In this document: piece by piece, positions 35,700-39,321 of the stretch | Position numbering within the stretch: the stretch's first letter is position 1 | How the letters are laid out: each line of letters opens with the position of its first letter | Source of the DNA: an uncultured Methanobrevibacter sp. | GTDB taxonomy: Archaea; Methanobacteriota; Methanobacteria; Methanobacteriales; Methanobacteriaceae | Direction: 5' to 3' | NCBI RefSeq assembly: GCF_902770715.1 | Contig: NZ_CACXTS010000018.1 | Span: forward strand, 2,666-66,665 | DNA length: 64,000 nucleotides | Made by a program: the position numbers and the translations under genes | Notes under the pieces: model-generated | Database searches by the model: none | The model's input: the letters and a program-made list of their open reading frames with translations, nothing else | What the model was told of the DNA's origin: nothing

Positions 35700-37046
35700 T
35701 TAATCGTTTATCTCATAACCTAAGGACTGTAGGTTTTCACGAATTTTATCAGATAAATCATATTGTTTGTTAGCTCTTAGTTCAGATCTAACATCAGAAA
35801 TTAAATCAAGTAAATCATCAGACCCGGCATTTACCTCTTCAACTTCAAAGCTAACACCAAAAATATGTGCCGCATCATCTAAGAATGCTTTAATAGCTAC
35901 TTTATCTTCATCAGAATATGAATCTAAATCATTTTTAGTATCATTGATTAATCCAAAGATTGCCGCAATAGCCTTTGGAGTATTAAAGTCATCATCCATA
36001 CTGTCAAAGAATTCTTTTTTATGAGGAGCCAACACATCACTTTCATTAATTTCCTCACCCACTTCAACATCCAAAAGCTCATAATATTTTCTAATCCTAT
36101 CCAAACTTTTTTCAGATTGGTGGAGTGAATCTTTGGAAAAGTCAATTGGGCTTCTATAGTGAGTTGAAAGTACAAAGAATCTGAATGTTTCGGCAGCATA
36201 ATCTTTTAATAATTCACGGATTGTAATGAAGTTATTTAAGGATTTTGACATTTTTTCTCCATTAACATTTAAAAATCCAGTGTGCAACCAGAATTTTACC
36301 ATTGGAGCTTTGCCTGAAACAGCCTCCATCTGTGTAATTTCCGCTTCGTGGTGCGGGAAAATCAAATCGAGTCCGCCACCGTGAGCATCATATTGAGGTC
36401 CGAAGTAGTATTCGGTAATTGCAGTATCCTCAATGTGCCATCCAGGTCTTCCGTCACCCCATGGGGATGGCCAAGTTGGTTCATCCACACCTTCACGTTT
36501 TTTCCAGAGCGCAAAGTCCTGTGGATTCTTTTTAGTGGTCTCTGCAATGTCTCTGTGAGATTCCAATTCTTCAACATTTCTGTTGGATAATTTACCGAAT
36601 TCAGGGAATTTATCTATTTCAAAATAGACTCCGTCTTCGGTTTCATAAGCGAAACCCTTATCAATTAATCTTTGAATTTGGTCTAAGATTTCATCAACGT
36701 GATCGGTTGCTCTTGCAAATAAATTAACGCCGTTTACATTTAATTTATTCATGTCTTCAATGTATCTTTTTTCAAACTTGCGAGCTAATTCATTTGCTGG
36801 AATTCCGCTTTCTTTTGATCTGTTGATAATCTTGTCATCAATATCAGTGATATTTTGAATGTAGAATACAGCATATCCTTTGTATTCCAAATATCTTTTT
36901 ATAGTATCGAAAGAAATGTATGTTCTTCCATGTCCAATATGAGCATCATCATAAACTGTTGGACCGCAAACAAATAAGTTAACTCTATTTTTATTAATAG
37001 TCACAAAATTCTCTTTACTGCGAGTTAAAGTTGAATAGACGTCCAT
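35700..37046 (-). CDS. cysS: Cysteinyl-tRNA synthetase (class I)
   Basis: VCGPTVYDDAHIGHGR, DFALWK, GRPGWHIE, GGGLDLIFPHHE, KMSKS; likely start ATG 37046 with GAGGT RBS. Confidence 0.97.
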   Translation of the reverse strand: MDVYSTLTRSKENFVTINKNRVNLFVCGPTVYDDAHIGHGRTYISFDTIKRYLEYKGYAVFYIQNITDIDDKIINRSKESGIPANELARKFEKRYIEDMNKLNVNGVNLFARATDHVDEILDQIQRLIDKGFAYETEDGVYFEIDKFPEFGKLSNRNVEELESHRDIAETTKKNPQDFALWKKREGVDEPTWPSPWGDGRPGWHIEDTAITEYYFGPQYDAHGGGLDLIFPHHEAEITQMEAVSGKAPMVKFWLHTGFLNVNGEKMSKSLNNFITIRELLKDYAAETFRFFVLSTHYRSPIDFSKDSLHQSEKSLDRIRKYYELLDVEVGEEINESDVLAPHKKEFFDSMDDDFNTPKAIAAIFGLINDTKNDLDSYSDEDKVAIKAFLDDAAHIFGVSFEVEEVNAGSDDLLDLISDVRSELRANKQYDLSDKIRENLQSLGYEIND

Positions 37047-37078
37047 AAAAAATAACCTCAAAAAATAGTAATTAAAAA

Positions 37079-37149
37079 AGGCAAGTGAGGGACTTGAACC
37101 CCCGTATTATGGTCTGCAGCCACACACCTAGCCACTCGGTAAACTTGCC
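37079..37149 (-). tRNA. tRNA-Cys (GCA), intronless, no encoded CCA
   Basis: GGCAAGT/ACTTGCC acceptor stem, U73, D-stem ACC/GGT, anticodon arm TGTGG-CTGCAGA-CCATA, T-arm GGGGG-TTCAAGT-CCCTC; followed by a T tract. Confidence 0.93.
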
Positions 37150-37221
37150 ACTTAAAATTAAAGTATAATAAAATATTGGTAATTGATAGTTTAAATAGTT
37201 TACTATTATTTCCAATATTTT

Positions 37222-37596
37222 TTAATTTACTTCAGAACCTAAACAAGATTGACAATCCTCACCAAGGTCAGATTTGTCAATATTAAGTTGTTTCAAAACG
37301 TCGGATATCTCAACATGATGGCAAATATTGCAGGTTCTTGGAATTAATTGCGCTTTTGTGGCTTCGCCAACAGATAACTCACGAGCAAATTCATGAATCA
37401 TTCCACGAACATCATCGTTAAGTTTAATTCCACTACCACGTTTGTCAGTAATGTACTGTGATACAGCAGGTTGAGTTATATCCATAAGTTCAGAAACATC
37501 TTTTTGTTTCATTCCTAAGTTCAAAAGCTCTTTAGCTAATTCTGACCTAATAGCCGGTATAACATACCAAACTACAATTTCGCAAGGTGGTTTCAT
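37222..37596 (-). CDS. HTH transcriptional regulator (COG2522-like) with Cys-rich C-terminus
   Basis: PPCE...PAIRSELA...MKQKDVSELMDITQPAVSQY HTH; CNICHH and CQSC. Confidence 0.82.
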   Translation of the reverse strand: MKPPCEIVVWYVIPAIRSELAKELLNLGMKQKDVSELMDITQPAVSQYITDKRGSGIKLNDDVRGMIHEFARELSVGEATKAQLIPRTCNICHHVEISDVLKQLNIDKSDLGEDCQSCLGSEVN

Positions 37597-37607
37597 TTTT
37601 CATCACT

Positions 37608-38312
37608 TCATTTGAATAAATCTTCTAACTCTTCTTGTTCATCTCTAATATCTCTCGCAAAACAAATTTCATTCTTATCATATAAAATTTGGATGTGCTT
37701 ATCAGTTTCTTCGAGATGTTGTTCAAGGGTTCTAATTGCTTTTGCAACAGGGTCTGGAAGTTTATTGTGATCTAAATCAACTTTATCGTGAGATACGCCT
37801 TTACATTTAACAATACGTCCAGGAACACCAACACATGTTGATTCAGGAGGAACATCCTTTAAAACAACTGCACCGGTCCCAATTTTAGAATATTCACCGA
37901 TTGTAATATTACCCATCACTTTAGCACCGGCACCTATGATAACTCCTCTTTCAATAGTAGGGTGTCTTTTAGTTTTTTCTGTACTTGTTCCACCAAGAAT
38001 TACTCCTTGATAAATCAATACATCATCACCAACAATTGCAGTTTCTCCAACAACAACTCCCATACCATGGTCAATAAATACTCGTTTACCGAATGTTGCA
38101 CCAGGGTGGATCTCAATGCCTGTAATAAATCTAGCTAAATTAGAGTTCATACGTGCAAGCAGCTTTAAAGAATGATTCCACAACCAATGGCTAACTCTAT
38201 GCATCAATAATCCATAAAATCCAGGGTAGCACAAAAAAATCTCCAGAGTGCTACGGGCCGCAGGATCTTTATCTTTAATAGCTTGGATTTCAGCCCTTAA
38301 ATCATTGAACAT
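37608..38312 (-). CDS. cysE: Serine O-acetyltransferase
   Basis: DPAARS, GIEIHPGA, FIDHGMGVVVGETA, KRHPT hexapeptide repeats. Confidence 0.96.
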   Translation of the reverse strand: MFNDLRAEIQAIKDKDPAARSTLEIFLCYPGFYGLLMHRVSHWLWNHSLKLLARMNSNLARFITGIEIHPGATFGKRVFIDHGMGVVVGETAIVGDDVLIYQGVILGGTSTEKTKRHPTIERGVIIGAGAKVMGNITIGEYSKIGTGAVVLKDVPPESTCVGVPGRIVKCKGVSHDKVDLDHNKLPDPVAKAIRTLEQHLEETDKHIQILYDKNEICFARDIRDEQEELEDLFK

Positions 38313-38347
38313 CGATAAACCTCAATTATTTTATACTTTAATTTTAT

Positions 38348-38361
38348 ATAACATATGGTAT
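38348..38361. promoter_or_regulatory. ATAAC-N4-GTTAT-like operator upstream of cysE
   Basis: ATAACATATGGTAT (1 mismatch) abutting a TATATATA box. Confidence 0.6.
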
Positions 38362-38373
38362 ATATACTTATTC

Positions 38374-39321
38374 TTATTCAAATAACCAATCTACGGAGAG
38401 ATATCTTTCACCGTTATCTGGTAAAATTGCTATAATTCTTTTACCTTTATTTTCTTCTTTTTTAGCCAAATCTAAAGCAGCCCAAGTTGCAGCTCCAGAT
38501 GAAATACCTGAAAAGATACCTTCTTTTTTAGCAAGTGCAATTAAGGTGTTTCCAGCATCCTCATTTGCAACTGGAATAATCTCATCAATTACGCTTTCAT
38601 CATATATTGATGGGACAAAACCTGCACCGATTCCTTGAATTTTATGAGGTCCTTTTTCACCTTTACCTAATGTCTGTGAGTCTTTAGGTTCCACTGCTAC
38701 AATTTTAACACCTGGAACTTCTTCTTTTAAGACTTTTCCAATTCCGGTTATTGTTCCACCAGTACCTACACCGCCGATAACAATGTCAACTTTTCCTTCA
38801 GTATCTCTTAATATTTCCTGAGCAGTAGTTTCCTCATGGATTTTTACATTAGCAGGATTGTCAAATTGACCCAATATAATGGAATCAGGAGTCTCTTCAT
38901 TTAATTCATTTGCTTTTGCAATAGCTCCACCCATTCCTTCTGAACCAGGAGTCAATACAATTTCAGCACCTAAAACACTTAAGAATTTCCTTCTTTCAAT
39001 GGACATGGTTTCAGGCATGGTCAATATTAACTTGTAACCTTTAGCAGCTGCCGCAAATGCAAGGCCAATACCTGTGTTTCCACTTGTCGGTTCGATGATT
39101 GTAGCACCTGGTTTGAGCAAGCCCTTCTCTTCCGCATCTTCAATCATTGCAACAGCAACACGGTCTTTTACACTTCCAGTTGGGTTGAATGATTCAATTT
39201 TTACATCAACTTCCGCTTCTAATCCTTCTGTTAGATTATTTAATCTTACAATTGGAGTGTTTCCAATAGCATCAGTAATACTATCATATACTCCTCTTTT
39301 TAATTCTGGAACTTTCGCCAT
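38374..39321 (-). CDS. cysK: Cysteine synthase A
   Basis: IGNTP, FNPTGSVKDR, EPTSGNTG, GTGGT, HKIQGIGAG, DNGERYLS. Confidence 0.97.
   Translation of the reverse strand: MAKVPELKRGVYDSITDAIGNTPIVRLNNLTEGLEAEVDVKIESFNPTGSVKDRVAVAMIEDAEEKGLLKPGATIIEPTSGNTGIGLAFAAAAKGYKLILTMPETMSIERRKFLSVLGAEIVLTPGSEGMGGAIAKANELNEETPDSIILGQFDNPANVKIHEETTAQEILRDTEGKVDIVIGGVGTGGTITGIGKVLKEEVPGVKIVAVEPKDSQTLGKGEKGPHKIQGIGAGFVPSIYDESVIDEIIPVANEDAGNTLIALAKKEGIFSGISSGAATWAALDLAKKEENKGKRIIAILPDNGERYLSVDWLFE

Follow-up and report, generated by a model that had tools for sequence, protein, structure and literature searches.

A cysteine synthesis and charging module of Methanobrevibacter and the lineage of its cysS-linked tRNA-Cys

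The cysteine module and its tRNA

The window analyzed here, a 64,000-nucleotide (nt) stretch of DNA from a Methanobrevibacter genome whose assembly is 93% complete, holds five genes in series, all on the minus strand: cysK, cysE, a gene for a helix-turn-helix (HTH) regulator, tRNA-Cys(GCA), and cysS. The first two (38374-39321 and 37608-38312) code for an O-acetylserine sulfhydrylase of 315 amino acids (aa) with a PALP domain and a serine O-acetyltransferase of 234 aa, and their matches are equivalog-level and above the curated cut-offs (O-acetylserine sulfhydrylase A, TIGR01139, 443 bits versus 351; serine O-acetyltransferase, TIGR01172, 241 bits versus 211). They are followed by the gene for a small XRE-type protein (37222-37596; 124 aa), whose match to the Pfam HTH_3 domain is borderline (23.8 bits versus 23); by an AT-rich spacer, read from the sequence (37150-37221); by the tRNA gene (37079-37149), found by ARAGORN and matched by the Rfam tRNA family with 53.2 bits; and, after a further spacer of 32 nt (37047-37078) with T runs and a GAGGT ribosome-binding site, by cysS, the gene for cysteinyl-tRNA synthetase (CysRS; TIGR00435, 486 bits versus 340). 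The open frame of cysS extends over 35700-37061. Its likely start is the ATG at 37046 (35700-37046), which gives a protein of the length of its homologs (448 aa) and is preceded by GAGGT, 32 nt past the 3' end of the tRNA; the TTG at 37061 is less likely. The protein has the expected domains (PF01406, 2.4e-119; DALR_2, 6.6e-10), retains the HIGH and KMSKS motifs in alignment to PDB 8qhp, and is 81 to 95% identical to other Methanobrevibacter CysRS. The G+C content of the module (0.35) is the same as that of its surroundings and hence gives no sign of recent acquisition. No Rfam family other than tRNA was matched in 35000-40000 (E values up to 1), which points to the absence of a T-box or riboswitch there. 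The original prediction for this locus, namely five co-oriented genes forming a self-contained supply of cysteine from synthesis through tRNA to charging, is thus borne out by family matches above the cut-offs and by ARAGORN.

The tRNA folds into a cloverleaf with a GCA anticodon and U73 and thereby qualifies as a tRNA-Cys; the anticodon and U73 are the major identity elements for CysRS (PMC9976931). Its acceptor stem reads G1-C72, G2-C71, C3-G70, A4-U69, A5-U68, G6-C67, and U7-A66; the anticodon loop is CUGCAGA, hence G37; and it has an A10:U25 pair, a mismatch at G13.A22, and a variable loop of 4 nt (AUAC). Direct reading confirms the first three pairs, U73, and G37, whose combination had been singled out as hybrid-looking. 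Two rules lie behind that impression. That methanogen tRNA-Cys usually starts with GCC and has G37 held for the canonical Methanobacteriales tRNA-Cys sampled, and that bacterial tRNA-Cys starts with GGC and has A37 is indicated by three bacterial genes read fully and the 3' half of a fourth.

The proposal that this might be a second tRNA-Cys dedicated to the module fared less evenly. ARAGORN found one tRNA-Cys among the 30 tRNAs of this genome, and tRNA-Cys of this type is present, once each and with 86 to 100% identity, in 23 of 24 congeners. The gene is therefore the sole and genus-typical tRNA-Cys, which is the first half of the outcome that the prediction itself had named as speaking against it; what stands is the idea of a lineage dedicated to cysS, which is found in relatives that bear SepRS (see below). 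Additional tRNA-Cys(GCA) genes of divergent sequence, which start with GAC or GCA, occur in two large congeneric genomes, G118 and G143 (G118:C4:69350-72391, L067; G143:C52:55620-58661, L068; G143:C94:1-1656, L077). One of these genes includes the CCA end and is part of a dense array of tRNA genes, and they may be members of mobile elements or proviruses.

Two tRNA-Cys lineages and two routes to Cys-tRNA

We scanned 150 Methanobacteriales genomes with tRNA-Cys patterns that allowed a 4-nt variable loop and took full sequences from fetched loci; because patterns ending in B miss A73, any cysS region for which no tRNA was listed was itself retrieved and scanned. Two types emerge. The canonical tRNA-Cys, here called type A, has a GCC start, G10:C25, a 5-nt variable loop with A47, A59, G37, and U73; its gene is located downstream of a cluster of tRNA genes (Asn-Met-Glu-Leu-His). 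In type B, the D arm is ACCGAG, with A10:U25 and G13.A22, and the variable loop measures 4 nt. The tRNA of the window is of type B and groups with the cysS-linked tRNAs of other genera; it departs from type A in its GGC start, A10:U25 pair, 4-nt loop, and location before cysS. Identity is 72 to 100% within type B, 78 to 94% within type A, and 64 to 76% between the two, as against 54 to 63% between type B and the three bacterial tRNA-Cys. Judged by these features, the two types are distinct lineages in Methanobacteriales, and tRNA-Cys genes of Methanobacteriaceae should not be treated as orthologous across genera. The GGC start, compared with the GCC of other type B tRNAs, differs solely by a flip, within the archaeal lineage, of pair 2:71, a change that is also seen in two neighboring genus-level groups (g9 and g18). 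G10:C25 counts as a minor identity element of SepRS alone, and A47 as one of both enzymes (PMC2330236); in type B, G10:C25 is absent and the variable loop is one base shorter than in type A. We had also considered G59, together with the short variable loop, as a lost SepRS identity element; most congeners have A59, and G59 is restricted to this species and its nearest relatives, so this argument was dropped.

SepRS (sepS, TIGR00470) and SepCysS (TIGR02539), the enzymes of the alternative route to Cys-tRNA, gave no match above the cut-offs in this genome, the best scores being 68.5 and 30.3 bits versus 381 and 365. The 68.5-bit match is probably PheRS; the 30.3-bit match and a third weak one are on another contig, and a 26-bit match is the NifS of the window. 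The organism thus appears to rely on CysRS, in line with the original prediction and in agreement with the formation of Cys-tRNA by CysRS only, without SepRS or SepCysS, in Methanobrevibacter smithii and Methanosphaera stadtmanae (PMC2330236). Across the order, SepRS is found in 80 of 151 genomes: in 66 of 136 Methanobacteriaceae, in all 14 genomes of the two sister families, and in 2 of 35 genomes of this genus. The corresponding counts are 131 of 136, 0 of 14, and 34 of 35 for CysRS (the single genome of the genus without a match being 95% complete) and 115 of 136, 0 of 14, and 35 of 35 for cysE. CysK, like CysE, was not found in the two sister families. In the SepRS-free genera for which a full tally was made, cysE is nearly universal (g1, 35/35; g9, 4/4; g15, 9/9; g18, 2/2; g12, 11/12). 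Both routes are present in the genus-level group g14, in which two genomes have a split or truncated cysS and a third has a split sepS (G167:C1:185749-187138; G090:C1:1919395-1920093; G126:C1:1587321-1588905), which suggests ongoing decay of one or the other route.

When the coordinates of the tRNA scan were compared with those of the CysRS matches and 40 fetched regions were annotated, each of the 29 fetched cysS regions from other genomes in which type B occurs proved to have it directly before cysS and in the orientation of that gene. The distance is usually about 30 to 330 nt, and once 1.8 kb (g9), and the arrangement recurs in at least 14 genus-level groups. The genes cysK-cysE-regulator, metY, and nifS-nifU are near this tandem but are rearranged between genera. 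Relatives that bear SepRS have type B directly upstream of cysS and, in addition, the canonical tRNA-Cys elsewhere. By contrast, cysS is without an adjacent tRNA in g15, g17, g21, g22, g27 to g29, and the congener G100, and probably in g26, whose cysS region is fragmentary; only type A was seen in these groups wherever their tRNA-Cys matches were listed. The CysRS of these groups is nested in the same clade as the others, and type B was hence lost there secondarily. As for type A, the congener G002 retains it together with SepRS and type B, and alignment of its type A locus to this genome shows that about 138 nt including the tRNA are replaced by about 40 nt, with both flanks conserved. The type A slot in this genome is thus cleanly deleted. 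An opposite resolution of the dual system is seen within the same genus in G100 (L063, G100:C4:462000-473500), which keeps SepRS, has the canonical type A tRNA-Cys only, and has cysK-cysE-cysS contiguous with neither regulator nor tRNA between them.

The discriminator base of type B varies along with the presence of SepRS. By a strict pattern, type B with C73 is present in 51 genomes, all of which have SepRS, and in none of the 62 genomes of five SepRS-free genera. The group g13 is itself divided into 6 genomes with SepRS and C73 and 5 without SepRS, in which the sole tRNA-Cys is type B with U73. In genomes that lack SepRS, type B always has U73. A few SepRS-bearing genomes, including G002, have type B with U73 as well, and C73 was never found in the only tRNA-Cys of any of the Methanobacteriales genomes searched. 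In an alignment of the 29 CysRS for which the linked tRNA had been read, a single column sorts the two classes without exception: residue 149 (numbered from the TTG start; Ile144 from the ATG) is Glu in 15 of 15 enzymes with C73 and Ile or Val in 14 of 14 with U73. The state of this residue flips with base 73 in three within-genus pairs, and in a tree built without column 149 both traits change at least five times, with all four to five independent pairs in agreement. Glu was never found at this position in about 130 further bacterial and archaeal CysRS, which always have Val, Ile, Leu, Thr, or Ala. The enzyme of the window has Ile149 (codon 36615-36617) with U73, and the genome has neither SepRS nor type A, so it stands outside the C73/Glu149 class.

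In enterobacterial CysRS, the counterpart of residue 149 is in the GDVMF-x-V motif, where the CP domain begins (about Val144-145 of the Escherichia coli enzyme), and a contact with base 73 is plausible. A tRNA-Cys with C73 in some Methanobacterium, along with changes in the acceptor-binding region of CysRS, is attributed to Perona et al. 2018 in PMC8762117, and the C73 phenomenon is thus already partly known. We tentatively propose, giving it a little less than an even chance, that Glu149 and C73 form a natural insulated CysRS-tRNA pair set by one protein-RNA contact. In such a scheme C73 would bar SepRS and SepCysS from the linked tRNA, and Ile/Val149 with U73 would let that tRNA serve alone, so that SepRS, SepCysS, and the canonical tRNA could be lost; a single residue-base switch might then have decided which route was kept. 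This covariation is the most interesting product of the analysis and is directly testable.

Expression, regulation, and neighboring genes

The spacer upstream of the tRNA contains a TATA-like TTTTATTATA at -27 to -18 and, further up, a conserved AGTAAACTATTTAAAC, both of which are kept in congeners, and this region is a putative tRNA promoter. The spacer toward cysS opens with a T5 run right after U73 (six T in all) and has a second run, T6, ahead of GAGGT. A T run just past the tRNA is seen in most congeners, a T run with a ribosome-binding site before the ATG is present in 9 of 9 same-genus rows shown, and the distance from the end of the tRNA to the ATG of cysS is 30 to 45 nt in the congeners shown. 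Since the 32 nt between the two genes include the ribosome-binding site and are too few to hold a further promoter for cysS, cotranscription with the tRNA is likely. The tRNA promoter would then serve cysS as well, by leaky read-through of the T run, and the tRNA and its enzyme would be supplied in a coupled manner.

The regulator has an N-terminal HTH, its HTH_3 match covering residues 21 to 53 only, and five cysteines (C5 and CxxC motifs at 89 to 92 and 115 to 118); its gene begins 11 nt past the end of cysE. The window protein scan gave it no NCBIfam match. It belongs to an archaea-only cluster family, and 41 to 50% of the members of its nearest Atlas clusters have HTH_3. Eleven relatives have an ortholog with 50 to 75% identity at this place, and all five cysteines are kept in 10 of them. 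A protein of 116 aa encoded beside the cysS of Methanoregula was considered as a homolog and set aside, there being no detectable homology. The cysteine cluster contains seven copies of the palindrome ATAAC-N4-GTTAT, five perfect and two with one mismatch, and the rest of the 64 kb has only two further copies with one mismatch each. Two adjacent copies form a candidate operator upstream of cysK (39388-39416), one with a mismatch lies between cysK and cysE (38348-38361), and four lie upstream of a metY-like gene (35498-35621); the spacer between the regulator and the tRNA has none. The regulator probably controls the biosynthetic genes via these sites, and a reasonable guess is that it is a metal- or iron-sulfur (Fe-S)-dependent repressor of them.

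Upstream of the module are nth (39464-40093) and aroA (40090-41409), and downstream of cysS follow the metY-like gene (34288-35487), nifS (33015-34223), and a small open reading frame (32641-33021) that is possibly nifU, all on the minus strand. The metY-like gene, for an O-acetylhomoserine sulfhydrylase (34288-35697, minus strand), has a frame open from about 35487, in which the first ATG, GTG, or TTG is the GTG at 35127. The conserved NSYVFKD motif is closely preceded by an in-frame stop, and the usual first 40 or so residues are missing; it would be either a 5'-truncated pseudogene or a gene with an unusual start. The counterparts in relatives of the small frame next to nifS (32641-34223 for the pair) are 74 to 81% identical to it. 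In other genera the pair adjoins the tRNA-cysS tandem on the opposite strand, making cysteine supply and Fe-S assembly neighbors family-wide.

Descent of the module and comparison with known systems

We built trees of the nearest 150 cluster representatives of CysRS and 80 named CysRS loci, a scattered sample from among the matches listed that contains no Methanobacteriaceae and also supplied the background rate of tRNA-cysS linkage, using FastTree and IQ-TREE. The CysRS of Methanobacteriaceae is monophyletic (99% SH-type support) and falls in a larger clade (98 to 99%) with Thermoplasmatota, DPANN archaea, Bathyarchaeia, and bacteria of the candidate phyla radiation (CPR), apart from Bacillota, Pseudomonadota, Chloroflexota, and Thermodesulfobacteriota. 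CysRS is hence no recent gain from gut bacteria. The nearest outside sequence is that of Methanoregula (80 to 87% support), on whose contig (L064 3905-5263) cysS is preceded, at a distance of 23 nt, by a tRNA-Cys that has G73 and A37, with PALP and hexapeptide-transferase genes adjoining. A genome of the Methanomassiliicoccales and another of the Thermoplasmata (L080 2907-4386; L081 743-2214), both without SepRS, have a tRNA-Cys with A73 directly before cysS, the gap in the three genomes being 17 to 23 nt. No tRNA-Cys is found within 3 kb of cysS in about 65 bacterial loci among the matches listed. CysK and CysE, whose affinity was judged by identity to ten named genomes, are 51 to 57% identical to the best-matching Bacillota enzymes; for CysK, the value is 57% with the homologs of both a rumen Clostridia genome and Gallibacter and 50% with that of a Theionarchaea genome, and the same Clostridia genome also has a more remote hexapeptide transferase that matches at 44%. 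These values fit a bacterial affinity of the biosynthetic half.

Taking together the anatomy of the locus, the copy number of the tRNA, the distribution of the two routes, the synteny, the covariation, and the CysRS tree, we consider it highly probable that this is an ordinary, vertically kept CysRS-only module, whose tRNA is the survivor of the cysS-linked type B lineage after the loss of SepRS, SepCysS, and type A. CysE and CysK would make free cysteine, with which CysRS would charge the single tRNA-Cys. Type B is physically coupled to cysS across Methanobacteriaceae; in SepRS-bearing relatives, where it stands beside type A, its usual C73 is matched by Glu149 in what looks like an insulated CysRS/tRNA pair. 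On the line to this genome, a type B with U73 would have been matched by Ile149, SepRS, SepCysS, and type A would then have been lost, and type B would have come to decode all cysteine codons. The hybrid look of the tRNA would accordingly reflect descent from a synthetase-linked lineage that took the place of the canonical tRNA upon the loss of SepRS, with no need for a bacterial origin.

The acquisition of the whole module from bacteria, with the tRNA as a hybrid adapted to CysRS and an extra dedicated copy, is on the other hand very improbable in our view. It draws on the GGC start, shared with the three bacterial tRNA-Cys read fully and the fourth known from its 3' half; on the 4-nt variable loop, as in Providencia; on the identity of CysK and CysE to Bacillota, which almost equals that to distant Methanobacteriaceae; and on the failure to find cysE and cysS in the two sister families. 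Yet the tRNA is the sole tRNA-Cys, is closer to type A than to bacterial tRNA-Cys, and differs from the GCC start of other type B tRNAs at pair 2:71 only; CysRS is on the archaeal/CPR side of the 98 to 99% split; the composition is unremarkable; and the approximately 65 bacterial loci have no such tandem. Of the acquired bacterial-type pathway envisaged by the original prediction, the CysRS and the tRNA parts therefore fall away, and the part concerning CysK and CysE is retained, by identity only. A gain from within the archaea, in which another archaeon donated type B and cysS as one tRNA-plus-synthetase cassette whose parts were thereafter inherited together, is a possibility to be taken seriously, although it is not the one that we favor. 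The tandems of Methanoregula (G73), the Methanomassiliicoccales, and the other Thermoplasmata genome (A73), all within the same CysRS clade, are what a cassette would predict, as is the joint absence of CysRS and type B from the two sister families; type B is nevertheless only 49 to 67% identical to those linked tRNAs, no closer than to type A, and the sister position of Methanoregula has the limited support given above. It is doubtful that the adjacency is only historical, with the tRNA and cysS expressed independently and the five genes without joint regulation. The 32-nt gap, ribosome-binding site included, leaves no room for a TATA/TFB recognition element (BRE) promoter, and the tandem has been kept across at least 14 genus-level groups despite a rearranged neighborhood. 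Independent expression is nonetheless favored by the T run directly after the tRNA, a possible archaeal terminator; by the palindromes at cysK, cysE, and the metY-like gene that are not found before the tRNA; and by g15, g17, g21, and G100, which run cysS without an adjacent tRNA, as well as by the 1.8-kb gap in g9.

Several points weigh against the vertically kept, cotranscribed module that we prefer and the insulation proposed for its relatives. The T run could be an efficient terminator, or cysS could be read from further upstream, cotranscription being deduced from spacing. A second tRNA-Cys might lie on sequence missing from the assembly, although the empty type A slot argues otherwise. 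The sign test on the independent pairs of base 73 and residue 149 gives p = 0.125, fewer than six pairs being unable to yield significance. The Methanomassiliicoccales genome and the other Thermoplasmata genome have A73 in what is seemingly their sole tRNA-Cys, with Val at position 149, and a discriminator other than U73 is hence not always a matter of insulation from SepRS. Type B may be a duplicate of type A or may have come in together with cysS, and tRNA sequences are too short to tell the two origins apart.

Why methanogens keep two routes to Cys-tRNA, and whether these share or divide the tRNAs, is an open question (PMC2330236, PMC8762117). The module of the window is itself ordinary for Methanobrevibacter, its value lying in the instructive evolutionary history of its tRNA. 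To that question it adds a testable picture: a second, cysS-linked tRNA-Cys lineage, a covariation of residue 149 with base 73, and a C73 that never occurs in a sole tRNA-Cys among the Methanobacteriales genomes searched.

Parallels can be drawn with several known systems. In the gltX-cysE-cysS operon of Bacillus, which is under T-box control, cysE and cysS belong to one transcription unit, and cysteine supply is linked to charging; in the window, a tRNA gene rather than a tRNA-sensing leader precedes cysS, and 35000-40000 holds no T-box. The pylTSBCD cassette likewise clusters the genes for a tRNA, its synthetase, and its amino acid, with the tRNA directly upstream of the synthetase (PMC9499178). 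Unlike the cysteine cluster, which serves standard codons and whose biosynthetic half is rearranged across genera, it serves a recoded stop codon and moves as a unit. In Methanosarcina mazei, the preference of SepRS and CysRS for different tRNA-Cys isoacceptors was shown biochemically (Hauenstein and Perona 2008, as cited in PMC9976931 and PMC8762117), an example of how labor may be split among tRNA-Cys genes where two routes to Cys-tRNA exist; that case concerns another order and another tRNA pair, and a division in Methanobacteriaceae is suggested by covariation. Closer still is the C73 system of Methanobacterium (Perona et al. 2018, as cited in PMC8762117), which by the present analysis has a type B tRNA directly upstream of cysS and a CysRS of the same monophyletic group. 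It differs from the window, which has U73 and Ile149 in place of C73 and Glu149 and neither SepRS nor type A, so that the tRNA and synthetase found here form the only system and not a possible insulated second one. Finally, Methanobrevibacter smithii and Methanosphaera stadtmanae have the same combination of CysE and CysK with a class I CysRS and a tRNA-Cys with GCA and U73, without SepRS or SepCysS (PMC2330236). Nothing essential separates the window from these two; what is added is that the surviving tRNA would be the cysS-linked paralog rather than the canonical tRNA-Cys.

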